Virus record (IMG/VR): IMGVR_UViG_2582580966_000010
DNA: 14,048 nt
Direction: 5' to 3' (one strand)
Source of the DNA: a virus
Taxonomy: Duplodnaviria; Heunggongvirae; Uroviricota; Caudoviricetes
Position 1 is the stretch's first letter. Every line of letters starts with the position of its first letter. The position numbers and the translations under genes were made by a program. The notes beneath the pieces were generated by a model. The model did not search any database and was not told where the DNA came from. It saw only the letters and a list, made by a program, of their open reading frames with translations. Of this stretch, positions 478-12,447 are shown piece by piece.

Positions 478-804
478 TCAGGGTGCAGAAGGACTAAAGA
501 TAAACGTTTTCTTCACGCCTTTACACGGCCTGTCCTTCTCAAATCGCCATTTTGCCATCGCCTTTACAACCTGCTCATCAAACAAATGGTGCGGCTCTGA
601 ACGGATAAACTCAATTCGGGTGACAGTACCATCAGCACCAATATCAAACTTCACATCAACCCGTCCCTTTATATAATTTGCCGCTGCATAGGCCGGATAT
701 TGTGGTAATGCCTTAACCAACTGTCGGGGCATATCTGTTTTATGTTGCGTACAGCCCATAACCAGAGAAGACAACAAAATAATTAACGGAAGGTTTCTTT
801 TCAT
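478..804 (-). CDS. Lipoprotein with TonB C-terminal-like domain
   Basis: Signal peptide with lipobox-like LVMGC (MKRNLPLIILLSSLVMGC). The C-terminal region PQYPAYAAANYIKGRVDVKFDIGADGTVTRIEFIRSEPHHLFDEQVVKAMAKWRFEK matches the TonB_C/TolA-C fold signature. ATG at 804 has GGGA placed 6 nt upstream; the ORF track begins at an upstream GTG (819). Confidence 0.55.
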   Translation of the reverse strand: MKRNLPLIILLSSLVMGCTQHKTDMPRQLVKALPQYPAYAAANYIKGRVDVKFDIGADGTVTRIEFIRSEPHHLFDEQVVKAMAKWRFEKDRPCKGVKKTFIFSPSAP

Positions 805-1148
805 TTTCATTCCCGGCACAGATAAGAATAAGTCTTATTCTAACAATGCCACCCTGTCGGTCATCAATCCTCTGCTTAATGGCAACGACAATTATCCGAC
901 TTAAATCACAAATCAGACACATGACATAACAGAGCTTGCGAGGTAACACATCGTCCGGTTTCTTCCACCATCGCACCGGACCAGCGACCATGAGGGGACA
1001 ACGCCGCGCTCCGTTAACACGGTAAACCCCGGTGTGTATCGTTTTTGATTATCCCCGCACACTCGCGCAGAGGAGTCTCCCGGTCGGGCTGCGGTCTCTG
1101 TTAATGCGGGGATACGGCGACAATACCGCGCATGGTTAATAAGGTCGC

Positions 1149-1396: not shown

Positions 1397-1864
1397 CTAG
1401 TTAATACACTGAGTGCGGATATAGTCCTGCGCCCCTTCCAGTTGCTTCTGCATTGTCATCAACCGCTCTCTGAGGGTGAAATAATCCCGTTCAGCGGTGT
1501 CTGCCAGTCGGGGGCCGGTTGCATTATCCACGCGGGCGGTGCCGGTGGCTTCACGCACGGAACCTGGACAGGTGGCGTTGATACGCAGGCTGCGGCGACC
1601 AGCGGCAACGTCAGCGCGCAGAGTTTCATTTTCAGCTCTCGCATCGGCTAACTCCTTTGTGTATTTTTCATCCAGCGCAGCAACATCACGCTGACGCTGC
1701 TGCATGTCAGTAATGGTTGTGTTTGCCAGCTCCAGCTCTCTGGCTTTTTTATCGCGCTGCGCTTTGTAGGTGATGGCGTTATCGCGGTAATGATTCAGCC
1801 CCAGACTAAGCACACCACAGGCTACCAGCAGGACAATAATCACCACACACAGAACACGGTTCAT
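1397..1864 (-). CDS. Rz: Rz i-spanin (inner-membrane spanin subunit)
   Basis: Strong similarity to lambda Rz as remembered: N-terminal TM followed by [15 protein letters not shown]...[15 protein letters not shown]...AAGRR...[23 protein letters not shown]. Start chosen at MNRVL (ATG 1864) to match lambda Rz length; the ORF track extends to an upstream GTG. Confidence 0.9.
1459..1644 (-). CDS. Rz1: Rz1 o-spanin (outer-membrane lipoprotein spanin), embedded in Rz in the +1 frame
   Basis: 61-aa ORF wholly inside Rz in another frame. It has a lipobox (LVAAAC) and the proline-rich motif [30 protein letters not shown], nearly identical to lambda Rz1. Confidence 0.85.
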
Positions 1865-1963: not shown

Positions 1964-2146
1964 TCACGATTTCAGCGCAATGACCAGTTTTGCCAGCCCA
2001 TACAGTATCGGAGACACAGCGATACCAACCGCCACCCACTTAATAGCAAAAGCCAGCGCTCTGCTGATGTCATCAGTTACTGGCGCTTTCAGTTCAAGGC
2101 CGTTTTTCATAGTCAACCTCAACAGAATTCGTTTATACTTTTCCAT
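1964..2146 (-). CDS. Hypothetical 60-aa tail-anchored membrane protein between endolysin and Rz
   Basis: ATG at 2146 with a strong SD (AAGGGAG). Charged N-terminal half and a hydrophobic C-terminal helix (ALAFAIKWVAVGIAVSPILYGLAKLVIAL). An upstream in-frame ATG at 2179 is also possible. Confidence 0.45.
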   Translation of the reverse strand: MEKYKRILLRLTMKNGLELKAPVTDDISRALAFAIKWVAVGIAVSPILYGLAKLVIALKS

Positions 2147-2179
2147 GTTCTCCCTTGCCTTATCCAAGGTCAGAAACAC

Positions 2180-2212
2180 AAAACCCCGCTTGCAGCCAAC
2201 AAACGGGGTTTT
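2180..2212. terminator. Bidirectional intrinsic terminator-like hairpin between endolysin and the 60-aa ORF
   Basis: AAAACCCCG-cttgcagccaacaaa-CGGGGTTTTT: a GC stem flanked by an A-run on one side and a T-run on the other, so it gives a U-tract on both strands. Confidence 0.45.
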
Positions 2213-2302
2213 TACTTTTATTCACTTAGTTTTTGTTAGTTCGCAGGATTTCGTGTTATCCGTCCGTGTGAGCAAACCGCATTTTTCAGCAAAATATTCT
2301 GC

Positions 2303-2836
2303 TTATCTGTCAATTCCCCAGCACGCCAGCGCACTCTCCTGGTCGCGACGGGATACCTGACCGTAACAGTTGTTTGAGCGAATACGGCAGTCTCTGCCAC
2401 CGTCCTTAATCCACCAGCGAATCGCTTCGCATGCTCCCCTGCGATCACCTGCATTAATTCGTCTGTAAAACGTCGACGGGAAACACTTACCGGGACCAAT
2501 GTTGTACGGACAGAATGACGCGATCCCCGCTTTCTGGGGTTCGGTCAGCGGCACTCTGATGTTTTTCTCCACCCACGCCAGCGCTTTATCACGCTCAATG
2601 GCGTTAACCTGGTCGCATTTTTCCTTCGACAACTTCATGCCCGGAACGACAGGTTTGCCATCCACCATGATGGCACCACGGCAGATGGTCCAGATACCCG
2701 CACCATCACGGTATGCCGTGGTGTGGTTGCCTTCTTTTTCATCCAGAAACTGGTCGAGAATTTCAGGCGCAGACGCACCAGCGGCAATCAGCGCCAGAAC
2801 GGCAGCCGACAGGCCGTATCTGATTTTTGCGTTCAT
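2303..2836 (-). CDS. R: SAR (signal-anchor-release) endolysin, T4-lysozyme-like muramidase (GH24)
   Basis: Gly/Ala-rich weakly hydrophobic N-terminal SAR segment (YGLSAAVLALIAAGASAPEIL), followed by the catalytic E-x8-D-x5-T spacing (EGNHTTAYRDGAGIWT) seen in phage 21 R-type lysozymes. It pairs with the upstream pinholin. Confidence 0.9.
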   Translation of the reverse strand: MNAKIRYGLSAAVLALIAAGASAPEILDQFLDEKEGNHTTAYRDGAGIWTICRGAIMVDGKPVVPGMKLSKEKCDQVNAIERDKALAWVEKNIRVPLTEPQKAGIASFCPYNIGPGKCFPSTFYRRINAGDRRGACEAIRWWIKDGGRDCRIRSNNCYGQVSRRDQESALACWGIDR

Positions 2837-2961
2837 GGATATTTATCAGGATTTATCGGTTCCGAATCCCTGGATATGTTAAGTCTTCAGCCCGCCAGTG
2901 GTGGGCACTGGCGTAAACTCAACAATGCGAGATGGCTGCCTCGCAAAGATAAGGAACAGAT

Positions 2962-3237
2962 ATGAGTGAAGAAAATAGCAAAGAGAATACAGCACTTTTT
3001 GACAGAATTTTTACTCTTGAGTTACAGGTCGGTTTTCTTCTCCCAAAGATAATCAAAGCAATGGATGCACTAAGTAAAAATAACGCTGTGTCAGATTACC
3101 TGATCGCCGAAATGGAACATCTAATTAAAGAAATACCAAAGACAGTTGCTCGTGATGATAAAAGATTCCTCAAGGCTGCTGAAGATGCTCTTTCAACAGT
3201 GAAGCGCAGCTTAGATGCGCCGCGCGATCAAGAATAG
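2962..3237 (+). CDS. Hypothetical 91-aa helical protein, antisense to the late operon (moron-like)
   Basis: ATG at 2962 with SD AAGGA at 6-nt spacing. AT-rich. The opposite strand over 2837-3169 has no ORF. It is followed by its own plus-strand intrinsic terminator. Its 3' end overlaps the 3' end of the converging 176-aa gene by 68 bp. Confidence 0.5.
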   Translation: MSEENSKENTALFDRIFTLELQVGFLLPKIIKAMDALSKNNAVSDYLIAEMEHLIKEIPKTVARDDKRFLKAAEDALSTVKRSLDAPRDQE

Positions 3238-3700
3238 TTTCTTTCATTTCATCTGCTGCAAGCACCTCATTTTTTGTTGGGGTGCTTTTTTTCAATTCAG
3301 CGATATAGCACTCCAGTTTTTCAATGCGTGATTCAATATCATCGTTTTCTGACCGCAATGCCGTCGGTGGCGTCTTCAGAGAACCAGTAATTATTCCCGG
3401 TAGTTTTCCTCTGTAGGTTATCAACACATCCTGCGCCTCTAAAATTATGGGGCGCTTTTCCGGCAACGGACCATCCCCTTCACATAACCCGGCAGCAACA
3501 TCCATGAAAAACTGCTTCGCCTGCTTTTTCGCCTCAGCTTCGTAAAACTCCAGCGTGGCATCTTCAGTACGGTCAAGACTAATCGCCACATCTGGCAACA
3601 ACAGTGACGGATACCCACCAATTTCCAGTGCCACAGTAACAGTAATCTTATTCGGGTAATTATTTATCCCTTTAACAACCAGTTCGTATTTTTTCTTCAT
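3170..3700 (-). CDS. Hypothetical 176-aa protein translationally coupled downstream of the holin
   Basis: ATG at 3700 lies 4 nt after the holin stop, with a GGAGAG SD inside the holin 3' end. Predicted C-terminal coiled coil (ENDDIESRIEKLECYIAELKK). No motif I recognise. Confidence 0.6.
   Translation of the reverse strand: MKKKYELVVKGINNYPNKITVTVALEIGGYPSLLLPDVAISLDRTEDATLEFYEAEAKKQAKQFFMDVAAGLCEGDGPLPEKRPIILEAQDVLITYRGKLPGIITGSLKTPPTALRSENDDIESRIEKLECYIAELKKSTPTKNEVLAADEMKETILDRAAHLSCASLLKEHLQQP
3261..3292 (+). terminator. Intrinsic terminator for the plus-strand 91-aa gene
   Basis: AGCACC...GGTGC stem followed by TTTTTTT on the plus strand only; the minus-strand RNA has no U-tract after the hairpin. 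The loop is long (14 nt), so confidence is moderate. Confidence 0.4.
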
Positions 3701-3704
3701 CGCT

Positions 3705-3920
3705 TTACTCTCCCCGCGCCGCCTTACGACGGTCCTCTCTGATTTTGAAATACAGGTTAGTCAGATATGTCAGCAGCCCAAACAGCAGACTTCCCAGTAC
3801 GCCTATTGCCGCCCACTGAGACGGGGAAACCCTGTCCAGCAGCTGCAGGAACCAGTAGCCCGTTCCCACCGCTGACGTGGTGTATGACACACCTGTTGTG
3901 ATTTTTTCCATCTGGTACAT
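3705..3920 (-). CDS. S: Class II holin (phage 21 S-like pinholin)
   Basis: 71-aa ORF. The sequence [51 protein letters not shown] is near-identical to S21/EssD-type holins as remembered. Possible dual-start motif M1-Y-Q-M4. Strong SD (GGGAG). Confidence 0.9.
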
Positions 3921-4633: not shown

Positions 4634-6577
4634 TTACGGGTTATTCACTTCCACTGCGATACTGTCAATCAGTACCGGGTAAGTCGCATTTTTAGTGATA
4701 TCGGTCACGCGCAACTTGTCTGCCGTAAACGTGCCGACCGGAGACTGCGACAGCATGAATGGTGTCCCGTCCTTACCATCAATGACCGGCGTCACCTCAA
4801 TACTGTTGTTACCGGCAAAACGGAAGCCCAGCGTATGCCATTCGTTATTAAATGCGCCGAATGACCCCAGCTTCGTGTTCTGCGCCGTGTTTCCTTTGTG
4901 ATACATCACGTTAAGGTCTGTGGCATCGCTCTGTACGTAAAACGATGCCAGCAGGTTATGACCGGCATTACCTTCCAGTGTGACGCCCTGAGGAAGCGAA
5001 GAAACCGGCCAGTACAGCGCCAGTGCGTACTGATTAGCCGTAAGCGCGCCATCGAGTTTAAAACGACAACTGACAAGACCACCTTTACCCAGCAGGTCCG
5101 CACCATTACCAGCATCATGCTCAAGGTACCAGGGGGCTCTTCCTGTTTCCTTGGTCAGTTTCATTGCCTTACCCCCGCTGGCTCCGGCATCATCCACGAT
5201 TTGAGCCTTGCCACCTCCGGCAGCCCAACCCTGTGGTGTCAACCGTCCTTCAGACTCAGATGCCCGGTAAGCAAATAGCGTACTCATCGTCGTGGTGTCT
5301 GCGGGTGGCGTGGACGGTTTTGATGGTGTATCAGGTGACGGCTTCTCATCCGGTGGTGTCACGGTCTGCCCGCGCATCAATTCAGCCGTGCGCCCTGCAT
5401 GGAGCATAATAGCTGAGGCCAGACGGTCTGAAATGACGCCCCTGCGTGCCCATGAGCTGAAATGGCTGTCACGCTGTGTCGAAACAAAACTGCCCTGGGT
5501 TCGGGATGCTGCACCGTAATACCCGACAGCCACAATATCCGGGTCTTCCGCCGGAGCATTCGTTGGCGTGCTCTGTCCATTCTCATCCGTCAGGAACGGT
5601 ACAAAGAAAATATTCTGTGCTTCCCTGCCCTTGTAACCGCCATATACCGCCTCATATTTATCGGCGTTAAGATTCTTCCAGTAATACGTGGTGTCACCAC
5701 AAATCCACGGCACCGAGCCAGCACTTCCGCCAACACACTGTGCAGAATATGCAGCCATATCAGCCCTGAACTGCTGCACCATAGTGGTAAACAGGCCGCT
5801 GTGCTGCTGACTGCCGTCCGCAAGATCATTTTCCCCCTGCATCCATACCACGGCCAGAAGCCTGTTTTTCGGGTTCTTCGACAGCGCCGCTTTTGTACGG
5901 AAGAGAAAATCCTGATACAGCGGTTTACCCACTCCCCAGCGGGCTGAATTTGCCGATGCGCCAGACGTTTCGCTGAACGTGCCGTCATTACCCACGGTTA
6001 AACCAGCCCCGCCACGGCAACAGGGCACCAGAAGAATCCCGGCATTCTGCGGGATATAAGGCAGAAGTTTTTTGGCAATATGCAGCCCCTGACCGACAGT
6101 CCCGTACTGGCCCTTACTCAGGTCTGCATGAGGATGGTTAAGTGCGCTCATGTCCTGAACATCATGCAGACAGTGGTCTGCCGGAATAACGTCATTGTAT
6201 GCACAGGTATCACCACCCGGCGTCACAGTGCTGCGACGGGCCAGCTGCTTAATACGGGAGTCAGGGCGATCATAGGTCTCCGGCAGAGGAAGCCCCTCAC
6301 CATAGGCCATACCGTTCGACTGCCCGGCCAGGGGAATAACGTAGTAATACTCCGGTTCAGTGGTAGCCACTCCCGGAGAGCCACCAGCCCCTGTGTCGGG
6401 CACAACCACAGGCGTGGTCACATCACCCTCTGCGGCAATGGCCTGCATCAGTGTATAAGGCGTGATAGCCACAGGACTGCCAAACGGCTGCCAGCCTTCC
6501 TTCAGTTTTTGTGTCAGTCGCTCCGCAAGGTCTGACGGCGACGCCGCCCTGACCACGTCATAGTGTTTAAATGCCAT
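4634..6577 (-). CDS. nanS-p: Prophage-encoded sialate O-acetylesterase (NanS-p-like; DUF1737 N-domain plus SASA/SGNH esterase plus C-terminal lectin-like domain)
   Basis: 647-aa ORF. Start chosen at MAFKHYDVV (ATG 6577) with a strong SD (GGAGGA); the ORF track begins 10 codons upstream. It carries the SASA-family catalytic serine motif GQSN (YYYVIPLAGQSNGMAYGE) and the conserved block VVWMQGENDL. Its position between the tRNA/cargo site and the holin matches the large esterase ORF downstream of stx in Stx phages. Confidence 0.8.
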   Translation of the reverse strand: MAFKHYDVVRAASPSDLAERLTQKLKEGWQPFGSPVAITPYTLMQAIAAEGDVTTPVVVPDTGAGGSPGVATTEPEYYYVIPLAGQSNGMAYGEGLPLPETYDRPDSRIKQLARRSTVTPGGDTCAYNDVIPADHCLHDVQDMSALNHPHADLSKGQYGTVGQGLHIAKKLLPYIPQNAGILLVPCCRGGAGLTVGNDGTFSETSGASANSARWGVGKPLYQDFLFRTKAALSKNPKNRLLAVVWMQGENDLADGSQQHSGLFTTMVQQFRADMAAYSAQCVGGSAGSVPWICGDTTYYWKNLNADKYEAVYGGYKGREAQNIFFVPFLTDENGQSTPTNAPAEDPDIVAVGYYGAASRTQGSFVSTQRDSHFSSWARRGVISDRLASAIMLHAGRTAELMRGQTVTPPDEKPSPDTPSKPSTPPADTTTMSTLFAYRASESEGRLTPQGWAAGGGKAQIVDDAGASGGKAMKLTKETGRAPWYLEHDAGNGADLLGKGGLVSCRFKLDGALTANQYALALYWPVSSLPQGVTLEGNAGHNLLASFYVQSDATDLNVMYHKGNTAQNTKLGSFGAFNNEWHTLGFRFAGNNSIEVTPVIDGKDGTPFMLSQSPVGTFTADKLRVTDITKNATYPVLIDSIAVEVNNP

Positions 6578-6660
6578 TATTCCTCCCCTTTCCGGGATTT
6601 TCCTCAACAGTTGCGGGCCACGGTCCGGCTACACGGAGAATCAAAAGAGGAGAACCGCAG

Positions 6661-6788: not shown

Positions 6789-6796
6789 GCCCATAG

Positions 6797-6823
6797 AAAA
6801 GCCCCTCCGGAGAGGGGCTTTTT
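6797..6823. terminator. Bidirectional intrinsic terminator downstream of the TerB operon
   Basis: AAAA-GCCCCTC-cgga-GAGGGGC-TTTTT: a perfect 7-bp GC stem with an A-run and a T-run on either side. Confidence 0.55.
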
Positions 6824-7063
6824 ACAGTGGTAGTGTAGACAATTTTGCATGGTGCCGGGTGCCTCCCGGTGAGTTCAGTATCAGCACCTGAACCCGCACA
6901 GAAAGGATAAGGGTCGGTGACAAAACACCAGTTGCTGATTGCCCCTCCGCACAGGGGGATTCACCATGCCAGTTTCTTTTAACAAACTCCCCGCAAACCA
7001 GACAACAGTCAACCGCCTGAATTGTGAGGTATTTAAAAATTTCAACGGGTAACTGATACCCTG

Positions 7064-7835: not shown

Positions 7836-7912
7836 TGGCGCGTTGTACTGGATTCGAACCAGTGACCGATTGCTTAGAAGGCAATTGCTCTGTCCGGCTG
7901 AGCTAACAACGC
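7836..7912 (-). tRNA. tRNA-Arg (anticodon UCU)
   Basis: Hand-folded cloverleaf: acceptor GCGTTGT/ACAACGC, D-arm GCTC...GAGC, anticodon stem ATTGC/GCAAT with loop CTTCTAA, T-arm CTGG-TTCGAAT-CCAG, then discriminator and an encoded CCA. Confidence 0.8.
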
Positions 7913-7928
7913 AGGATACAGATAATGA

Positions 7929-8002
7929 ACCGCCTTCGGGGATCCGAACTCCGCGCAACCAGCTTCGAAGGCTGGCGCTCTTTCCTGATGAGCTAATGGC
8001 GG
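7929..8002 (-). tRNA. tRNA-like gene, Arg (anticodon UCG), imperfect and without encoded CCA; possibly degenerate
   Basis: Cloverleaf with anticodon stem CCAGC/GCTGG and loop CTTCGAA. The acceptor stem has one A-A mismatch and the T-stem one A-C mismatch. The 3' end is followed by TCA rather than CCA. Confidence 0.5.
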
Positions 8003-8009
8003 TATGTGA

Positions 8010-8085
8010 TGGTGGCCCTTGCTGGATTTGAACCAGCGACCTGGCGATTATGAGTCGCTCGCTCTCACCACTGAGCTAAAGGGCC
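8010..8085 (-). tRNA. tRNA-Ile2 (anticodon CAU, ileX/ileZ-like; a Met assignment cannot be excluded from sequence alone)
   Basis: Sequence GGCCCTTTAGCTCAGTGGTGAGAGCGAGCGACTCATAATCGCCAGGTCGCTGGTTCAAATCCAGCAAGGGCCACCA. The anticodon stem-loop matches E. coli ileX-type tRNA as remembered. Perfect acceptor stem and an encoded CCA. Confidence 0.8.
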
Positions 8086-12080: not shown

Positions 12081-12236
12081 TTACTCCTCAGGTTCGTAAG
12101 CTGTGAAGACAGCGACCTCCGTCTGGCCGGTTCGGATTCGTACCTCGCAGAGGTCTTTCCTCGTTACCAGTGCCGTCACAATGACGGTTAAACAGATGAC
12201 GATCAGGGCGATTAGCATCGCCTTTTGCTGCTTCAT
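12081..12236 (-). CDS. hok: Hok-family type I toxin (identical in sequence to HokD/RelF as remembered)
   Basis: Hand translation gives MKQQKAMLIALIVICLTVIVTALVTRKDLCEVRIRTGQTEVAVFTAYEPEE (51 aa): one TM helix plus a periplasmic tail with conserved Cys. Confidence 0.9.
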   Translation of the reverse strand: MKQQKAMLIALIVICLTVIVTALVTRKDLCEVRIRTGQTEVAVFTAYEPEE

Positions 12237-12293
12237 AGCCTGCTTCTCCTTGCCTTTCGGCACGTAAGAGGCTAACCTACGTGTGTAGAGCAT
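12081..12293 (-). CDS. mok: mok-like overlapping reading frame (same frame as hok, upstream start)
   Basis: In-frame upstream extension MLYTRRLASYVPKGKEKQA running into hok, as in hok/mok/sok loci where mok translation is needed for hok translation. Confidence 0.55.
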   Translation of the reverse strand: MLYTRRLASYVPKGKEKQAMKQQKAMLIALIVICLTVIVTALVTRKDLCEVRIRTGQTEVAVFTAYEPEE

Positions 12294-12447
12294 AGATATG
12301 GCCTCAGATTAATGTTAAGCGTCTTGCCGGACGCGTAATGTTAACTGGGGCTTTTCTCTATCTGCCTTTTGGTGTTCATGCCTGAGACAGATAGCCTCAA
12401 GCACCCGCTGCAATTCTACTTAACTCTCCTTTTCCCGCAAACCGTTT

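Follow-up and report, generated by a model that had tools for sequence, protein, structure and literature searches.

Small phage lipoproteins that act on TonB-dependent transporters from within the cell have been described before. Llp of T5 and Cor, as encoded by phi80, N15 and HK022, are located in the outer membrane, in its inner leaflet, from where they act periplasmically on a transporter and bring about the exclusion of other phages, and Llp in particular is specific for FhuA, which it inactivates from the periplasmic side through allosteric effects on the plug and loops (bioRxiv 10.64898/2026.03.26.714494). In addition, engineered periplasmic fragments of TonB itself are reported to inhibit transport by FecA and FhuA (Howard et al. 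2001, J Bacteriol 183:5885, as cited in PMC6042079 and PMC9841981), and FimU-like pilins of Pseudomonas prophages exemplify a prophage copy of a host envelope-machine component that interferes with phage infection (PMC12952977). Here we describe a gene at positions 478–804 of IMG/VR virus record IMGVR_UViG_2582580966_000010, a lambdoid prophage stretch of 14,048 nucleotides that we refer to in its entirety as the window, whose product joins a lipoprotein signal to a TonB C-terminal domain (hereafter the TonB_C lipoprotein).

The closest relative in sequence and structure is the C-terminal domain of Escherichia coli TonB (P02929, residues ~150–239; Protein Data Bank (PDB) entries 1u07, 2gsk and 2grx), with which the phage protein shares the Pfam family, the fold, the PxYP motif, the aromatic core and strand β3. 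Unlike TonB, it has neither an N-terminal membrane anchor nor a proline-rich spacer, carries a predicted lipid anchor instead, and is four residues shorter at the C-terminus. Like the engineered fragments, it would place an unenergised TonB domain in the periplasm, and it is by analogy with them that we propose inhibition as its mechanism; the fragments are artificial, soluble and overproduced, whereas the lipoprotein is natural, predicted to be lipid-anchored and preceded by a candidate promoter of its own. With Llp and Cor it has no family in common, as Pfam returns only TonB_C and TonB_2, although its biological role may by analogy resemble theirs. In contrast to Llp, a TonB mimic would target the TonB box shared by many transporters and colicins, and would block energy-dependent steps rather than adsorption. 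The FimU-like pilins embody the same concept but belong to another machine, the type IV pilus, and to another fold, and their effect has been shown experimentally, whereas the function of the lipoprotein is one that we infer. Finally, with lambda Bor, and with Lom among the lipoprotein and outer-membrane morons, it shares the genomic slot after Rz/Rz1 and the character of a small lipoprotein, one whose phage 21-type allele is expressed from the prophage.

The TonB domain and its lipoprotein signal

The gene and the segments of its product map to the window as follows:

478–804, minus strand: coding sequence of the TonB_C lipoprotein, with ATG at 804, stop codon at 478–480 and 108 amino acids, from the open reading frame (ORF) list and its translation
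751–804, minus strand: signal peptide and lipobox, residues 1–18 (MKRNLPLIILLSSLVMG-C), with the Cys18 codon at 751–753
724–750, minus strand: short tether that links the lipid anchor to the folded domain, residues 19–27 (TQHKTDMPR), modelled with lower confidence
493–723, minus strand: TonB C-terminal domain, residues 28–104, from profiles, alignment to PDB sequences, and an AlphaFold2 model compared by Foldseek
811–814, minus strand: probable ribosome-binding site GGGA, 6 nucleotides 5' of the ATG at 804, as read from the sequence

The C-terminal segment scores well above the cutoffs of both Pfam TonB_C (PF03544; 54.7 bits versus 24.6, E 1.4e-14) and NCBIfam TIGR01352 (54.4 bits versus 27.1), and a Pfam scan of the whole lipoprotein matched TonB_C and TonB_2 only. 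Residues 24–108 align without gaps to residues 151–235 of E. coli TonB, with 37% identity over the 85 residues. An AlphaFold2 model built on 22 relatives has a predicted local distance difference test score (pLDDT) above 95 across residues 28–104; its best Foldseek matches are the E. coli TonB C-terminal domain entries 1u07, 2gsk_B and 2grx_C, with root-mean-square deviations of 1.0–1.4 Å and target-normalised template modelling (TM) scores of 0.88–0.92, and it superposes at 1.0–1.2 Å on TonB as found in its complexes with BtuB and FhuA. The preliminary description of this DNA, made from the sequence alone, had read the gene as a lipoprotein with a TonB C-terminal domain and looked to the fold for confirmation; lipobox, profile matches, model and structural matches all bear this reading out.

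The correspondence extends to individual residues. The PxYP motif is kept as P34-Q35-Y36-P37, equivalent to TonB P161–P164, and the aromatic core formed by Y36, F53, F75, W86, F88 and F103 retains every position of its TonB counterpart (Y163, F180, F202, W213, Y215 and F230), while strand β3 spans residues 94–103. P34, Y36, F75 and W86 are invariant across 19 sequences. The family has motifs of its own, YPxYAxAN and SEPxHLFD, where TonB reads YPARAQAL and AKPANMFE, and the domain of the window protein is basic, with an isoelectric point (pI) of 9.6. In the BFVD viral structure library there was no match better than E 0.1, which leaves the domain without a described viral structural relative.

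The preliminary description had also entertained a TolA-like domain. TolA structures (domain III) were reached by Foldseek only at E 0.09–1 with TM scores of 0.36–0.42, and Pfam gave no TolA match; sequence and model thus agree on a TonB-type rather than a TolA-type domain, in which case Tol-dependent colicins would be unexpected as targets. Nor is the protein a TonB energy transducer: against the corresponding NCBIfam equivalogs (NF008080–NF008084) it reaches at best 74 bits versus a cutoff of 315, nothing in it aligns to TonB residues 1–150, where the membrane anchor and proline-rich spacer would lie, and its N-terminus is instead a cleavable lipoprotein signal peptide.

That N-terminus, read from the sequence as MKRNLPLIILLSSLVMG followed by Cys18, combines a basic n-region, a hydrophobic core and a lipobox, LVMG-Cys18, that fits the PROSITE rule. 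At position +2 after the cysteine the window protein has Thr, its relatives have Ser, Thr or Ala, and none has Asp. In E. coli, lipoproteins without Asp at +2, the Lol avoidance signal, are sorted to the outer membrane, and the Thr at this position therefore predicts Lol-dependent sorting there; the probable site of anchoring of the TonB_C lipoprotein is thus the outer membrane, on its inner leaflet. The lipobox cysteine is invariant in an alignment of nine full-length lipoprotein relatives, LxGC or LxAC is found in 21 of 21 distinct relatives from viral contigs, and the cysteine, the non-Asp residue at +2 and the short tether are conserved in relatives as distant as 34% identity. Only 9–10 residues separate the cysteine from the domain in a mature protein of 91 residues: the mean pLDDT per block of ten rises from 48 through 53 to 82 over residues 1–30, and the first strand of the model starts at residue 28.

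Translation could also begin at a GTG at 819, which would lengthen the N-terminus by five residues; RefSeq holds the identical protein in its 108-residue form, as a 'TonB family protein'. The existence of the gene is accordingly known through annotation, although databases call it no more than a 'TonB family protein' or a 'TonB fragment' or, probably in error, an 'Rz-like spanin'. A conserved moron that combines a lipoprotein signal with TonB_C, in many cases preceded by a Fur box, is described in no paper that we found.

Promoter, Fur box and spread of the family

Two further elements were read upstream of the gene:

837–864, minus strand: candidate sigma-70 promoter, with a −35 element ATGACC (864–859), a 16-nucleotide spacer ending in TG and a −10 element TAGAAT (842–837); its extended −10 is TGTTAGAAT
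821–839, unstranded: Fur-box remnant and palindrome, GATAAGAATAAGTCTTATT on the plus strand, with 13 of 19 positions matching the consensus GATAATGATAATCATTATC, overlapping the −10 hexamer and the likely transcription start

By consensus scan alone the promoter candidate is weak, as promoter-like sites in the region are no commoner than expected by chance. The block ATTGTyAGAATAAGAC is nevertheless retained in the phage 21 allele, and the same extended −10 lies 5' of the gene in its Salmonella, Klebsiella and Raoultella copies. Diverged relatives have a common upstream order of extended −10, Fur-box-like palindrome and ribosome-binding site, and the remnant at 821–839 sits exactly where relatives have boxes matching 14–17 of the 19 consensus positions. 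The matches at the individual loci are:

Sodalis prophage: 17/19
Erwinia: 16/19
Klebsiella sp. chromosome: 16/19
Salmonella prophages: 15–16/19, with a perfect TGATAATtATTATCA core
Raoultella ornithinolytica chromosome: 15/19
Klebsiella phages: 12–14/19
Window, 821–839: 13/19
Phage 21: 10/19, with 13 nucleotides deleted at the place of the box in comparison with the window

To set these values against a background, we scored 420,408 positions of the examined loci, with the box of sitA, a known iron-regulated promoter, as positive control. Matches of at least 15/19 occurred at a rate of 6.7e-5 per position and those of at least 13/19 at 3.5e-4, and all matches of at least 15/19 fell upstream of TonB-lipoprotein genes, upstream of sitA, or near cos and the small-terminase gene. 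We thus describe here as new a strong Fur box, as judged from the sequence, at the promoter of most relatives, which ties the family to the regulon of iron and TonB-dependent transporters, links a prophage cargo gene to the iron regulon of the host, and offers a direct and cheap experimental handle. The string TAGTATTGATAATTATTATCAAT is identical in the Salmonella prophage copy and the Klebsiella chromosomal copy; the gene has therefore passed between phage and chromosome and taken its promoter and operator with it.

For the window copy itself we make no claim of Fur control: what it carries is a degraded 13/19 remnant, and as the window holds nine stretches scoring at least 13/19 (seven sites), such a score is not unusual by itself. 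Expression of the other E. coli allele has been recorded by RNA sequencing, in which the Perceval copy, of the phage 21 type, is listed as a moron expressed 8-fold above the prophage background in an LF82 lysogen grown in lysogeny broth (PMC9928086, Table 1). The Perceval allele has no Fur box, and its expression in this medium fits an autonomous promoter that has escaped from Fur control. Judging from their sequences, the E. coli prophage alleles have a degraded operator, and their expression in the lysogen is probably more constitutive.

In several unrelated temperate phages, sites that match the Fur consensus at 15–17/19 are also found repeatedly close to cos or upstream of the gene for the small terminase. 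They include sites at L101 3471–3495 (E. coli S88, ~6–30 nucleotides left of the position where the window starts) and L002 5051–5069 (by the cosQ of phage 21), with further examples in the cos/terminase region at L093 9665–9689, L111 5212–5230, L003 8616 and L116 7607. These could be Fur sites, or AT-rich packaging or integration host factor (IHF) sites that resemble Fur boxes.

The distribution of the gene in E. coli was counted over 5,426 complete genomes. The window allele is present in 417 of them, as well as in Stx1a phages, Lys8385Vzw and JLK-2012, and a 72%-identical allele, that of phage 21, ev017, Perceval and UTI89, in 1,225; together the two alleles account for up to ~30% of the genomes, and their carriers include enterohaemorrhagic, uropathogenic (UTI89) and adherent-invasive (LF82) strains. 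Between the window and phage 21 alleles the synonymous divergence (dS) is 1.37 and the ratio of nonsynonymous to synonymous divergence (dN/dS) is 0.13: the gene is under purifying selection and is a conserved member of its family. An exhaustive profile search retrieved short relatives of 107–133 residues with 34–49% identity, nearly all with a lipobox and a few with an ordinary signal peptide. In Klebsiella, Salmonella and Sodalis prophages the relatives lie between the lysis and packaging genes; the gene fills this slot in RM8385, phage 21 and JLK-2012 in addition to these Klebsiella, Salmonella and Sodalis phages, and the same slot is without it in E. coli S88 and Sakai Sp6, which makes it an accessory ('moron') gene of lambdoid prophages. 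A chromosomal copy is found in four Raoultella genomes and in Klebsiella sp. R390, syntenic on the lacZ–lacI side and with flanks 80–94% identical, from which vertical inheritance follows. Further copies occur in Erwinia, Gibbsiella and Rahnella, and some homologues stand in chromosomes with no phage genes nearby.

Variation within the E. coli alleles includes a few unusual forms. In the representative of the largest cluster of the window allele (395 member sequences), Gly47, which is nearly invariant, is replaced by Glu and Cys94 by Arg, positions at which the window and E. coli RM8385 have Gly (nucleotides 664–666) and Cys (nucleotides 523–525), respectively, and several variants of the phage 21 type have frameshifted C-termini.

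A possible TonB decoy and competing explanations

TonB boxes pair with strand β3 in TonB's C-terminal domain and come close to the surroundings of TonB residue 160; for their function local secondary structure matters more than individual side chains, and site-specific contacts between TonB and FecA in vivo are independent of energised TonB (PMC11658791). An uncoupled domain could on these grounds bind many TonB boxes, and both contact regions, P34-Q35-Y36-P37 and the strand at 94–103, are present in the lipoprotein. Furthermore, a periplasmic TonB domain inhibits TonB-dependent transporters and iron import when overproduced (Howard 2001), and a TonB-box peptide lowers colicin killing and phi80 infection (Tuckman 1992), both as cited in PMC9841981. 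Interference with TonB-dependent uptake, which the preliminary description had put forward, is plausible by analogy with these observations.

We propose that the lipoprotein serves at the outer membrane as an unenergised decoy, where it would occupy TonB boxes in competition with TonB; this is the reading that we favour, though we hold it to be somewhat less likely than not, as we infer location, binding, inhibition and benefit alike. Without the membrane anchor and proline-rich rod of TonB, the protein can neither couple to ExbB/ExbD nor transmit energy. On a tether of ~10 residues the domain would stay at the periplasmic openings of the outer-membrane barrels, where TonB boxes could pair with its strand β3 by β-strand addition. 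The targets would be the TonB boxes of FhuA, FepA, Cir, BtuB and other transporters, as well as those of group B colicins, at the periplasmic face, and competition with the genuine TonB would lower TonB-dependent entry, including that of T1- and phi80-type phages, group B colicins and microcins, at the cost of reduced siderophore and B12 uptake. In most relatives predicted Fur repression would time production of the protein to iron starvation, when the outer membrane fills with these very receptors.

A broader version of the proposal is more doubtful: that temperate enterobacterial phages carry in this gene a natural 'TonB decoy', Fur-timed in most lineages, a single small protein that gives the lysogen tolerance to entire classes of phages that depend on TonB, of group B colicins and of microcins by targeting the shared energy-coupling step rather than one receptor. 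Should TonB-dependent uptake indeed be damped, phage therapy and sensitivity to colicins and microcins would be affected, as would susceptibility to siderophore-conjugate antibiotics (cefiderocol-type 'Trojan horses'), and the lipoprotein would provide a natural tool to probe TonB-box engagement in vivo.

Several points weigh against the decoy proposal. At the level of the contacts, TonB R166 and R171 align to Tyr in the lipoprotein, and the residue equivalent to TonB Q160 is Leu here and varies across the family. Searches of the literature found no study of binding, localisation, phenotype or other function for any family member. The PADLOC defence-system library gave no meaningful match, and we found no evidence that the carrier phages themselves use a TonB-dependent receptor; the C-terminus of the central tail fibre J of phage 21, a variant within the lambda family, shares 57% identity with its counterpart in the lambda-derived DE3 and is uninformative on the receptor. 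Furthermore, if iron starvation induced a general inhibitor of TonB, the host that carries it would, paradoxically, be starved; yet Raoultella and a Klebsiella species keep the syntenic chromosomal copy behind a strong Fur box, which suggests that the cell benefits from the protein when iron is limiting, and not through exclusion alone. A pure phage-exclusion reading must account for both the chromosomal inheritance and the Fur boxes.

The Leu at the position of Q160 coincides with TonB(Q160L), a classical suppressor (PMC11658791); given the variability of this position within the family, we regard the match as a curiosity only.

The alternative that fares best takes these same observations as its starting point, namely that the protein is an envelope factor for iron starvation, helpful or regulatory for the cell and carried by phages as a fitness gene in the manner of sitABCD, with exclusion at most a side effect. 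The protein might, for instance, park on idle, unliganded transporters and so leave scarce TonB to the loaded ones, or tune the traffic between transporters and TonB. The strong Fur boxes 5' of both chromosomal and phage copies and the vertically inherited copy of four Raoultella genomes and Klebsiella sp. R390 speak in its favour, as does the presence of sitABCD in 6 of 6 distinct phage genomes with the phage 21-type allele. The sit linkage, however, looks like the shared ancestry of one lineage, the Fur box is mostly or wholly lost in the E. coli alleles, and there is no known mechanism by which an unenergised TonB domain would aid transport, the overproduced domain being inhibitory (as cited in PMC9841981). 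On balance we consider this explanation rather improbable, yet deserving of serious attention.

The inhibition at the heart of the decoy proposal could also be directed at TonB itself, if the tethered domain paired with the C-terminal domain of host TonB and held it at the outer membrane. On their own, TonB C-terminal domains form dimers in crystals, the entry that the model matches most closely, 1u07, lists two chains, and all residues of the aromatic core are kept. At 37% identity, on the other hand, a dimer interface need not persist, and the domain is monomeric in the TonB–receptor complexes (2gsk and 2grx). We deem such trapping unlikely, while noting that the evidence assembled here does not separate it from TonB-box binding.

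With its outer-membrane-type sorting signal, its short tether and the basic character of its domain (pI 9.6), the lipoprotein might alternatively bind peptidoglycan or an abundant envelope protein and stabilise the envelope in the way of Lpp or Pal, all the more as the TonB C-terminal domain has been reported to bind peptidoglycan. Pfam finds no peptidoglycan-binding family in the protein, only TonB_C and TonB_2, and the Fur control predicted for relatives points to the iron-uptake machinery instead, so that a tethering role appears less likely still.

The two remaining explanations are contradicted by the data, and we give them very little credence. A role as lysis accessory or spanin, suggested by the label 'Rz-like spanin' of phrog_1267, which the protein matches end to end (E 6e-43), and by the location of the gene just 3' of the lysis cassette on the late strand, is at odds with the complete Rz/Rz1 pair already present in the window, the folded TonB domain in place of a short proline-rich o-spanin, the distance of ~590 base pairs from Rz/Rz1, the homologues in chromosomes with no phage genes nearby and the expression of the phage 21-type allele in the lysogen (PMC9928086), and we reject it on account of the true Rz/Rz1 and the TonB fold, the PHROG name being probably a propagated annotation error. 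A dead fragment of a captured tonB, as annotations such as 'TonB fragment' and 'partial tonB-like membrane protein' imply, would explain why only the C-terminal third of TonB is represented and why several deposited variants have frameshifted C-termini, but not the dN/dS of 0.13 at saturated synonymous sites, the protein's own signal peptide and lipobox conserved across genera, the family-specific motifs YPxYAxAN and SEPxHLFD that differ from TonB, or the conserved promoter and operator.

Genomic slot and neighbouring genes

The order of genes on the late strand leads from a group of tRNA genes through the lysis functions to the TonB_C lipoprotein gene:

7839–8085, minus strand: three tRNA genes (Rfam), at the start of the late-strand gene order
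4634–6607, late (minus) strand: NanS-p-like esterase gene, after the tRNA genes
Between the NanS-p-like esterase gene and the holin gene, late strand: DUF826 ORF
3705–3920, minus strand: holin gene, on the same strand as the TonB_C lipoprotein gene
3170–3700, late strand: DUF1327 ORF, between the holin and lysozyme genes
2303–2836, minus strand: lysozyme gene
1397–1948 and 1459–1644, minus strand: Rz and Rz1 genes, respectively (Pfam Phage_lysis 2.8e-50, Rz1 4.3e-21)
146–346, convergent to the TonB_C lipoprotein gene: YlcI/YnfO gene, the next one after it

Approximately 590 base pairs with no convincing ORF separate Rz/Rz1 from the lipoprotein gene, and a sequence scan found no terminator 3' of the latter. 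In related prophages the terminase genes come next, and the left end of the window adjoins a lambda-type small terminase gene there. The gene thus occupies the slot after Rz/Rz1 and before the packaging genes, where lambda has bor, and the preliminary description, which had located it where lambda carries bor, was right as to its position downstream of the lysis genes. The notion that it replaces bor did not hold: Bor is unrelated in sequence and encoded on the opposite strand, phage 21 carries bor and a TonB_C lipoprotein gene together, and a search of the window for bor found none.

Other cargo is found alongside relatives of the gene. In a Salmonella prophage the product of the gene directly after the TonB-lipoprotein gene (L111 4449–4871) belongs to the Ivy family of vertebrate lysozyme inhibitors (Pfam E 7e-19), which makes this another envelope-protecting cargo gene of the same slot. 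A Klebsiella phage with a TonB-lipoprotein gene also has a gene for a DUF1440 (YagU-like) membrane protein (L003 1286–1912), 60% identical to a gene that lies ~400 base pairs from the Raoultella chromosomal TonB-lipoprotein gene (L085 8738–9301); its presence beside both copies makes co-capture or a functional link possible. The sitABCD iron/manganese transporter that accompanies the phage 21-type allele lies behind a 17/19 Fur box (in phage 21, L102 10968–14417). Many sit phages have no TonB lipoprotein, and none of the phages with the window-type allele has sit, for which reason we set a functional link to sitABCD aside as linkage within one phage lineage.

Between Rz and the lipoprotein gene, an unannotated block of ~200 nucleotides (window ~940–1140, minus strand) is 88% identical to phage 21, although the neighbouring coding sequence is saturated at synonymous sites. 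The block contains no convincing ORF, and a structured RNA was considered and discarded, with no Rfam match and a fold z-score of −0.12. With 4,542 occurrences spread over 1,911 of the 5,426 E. coli genomes, it is far more widespread than the TonB_C lipoprotein gene and therefore not specific to it.

The lysis cassette is interrupted (window 1964–3920), as the DUF1327 ORF and an opposite-strand ORF of 91 residues (2962–3237) lie between holin and lysozyme, the latter ORF followed by a terminator-like hairpin at 3260–3287. A further ORF of 71 residues (1964–2179), preceded by a strong hairpin (2212–2180), lies between lysozyme and Rz. Finally, Rfam identifies the small RNA STnc100 and the sok antitoxin RNA in the window, at sites 6789–6998 and 12231–12406, both on the minus strand, and the presence of sok presumably reflects a hok/sok module.

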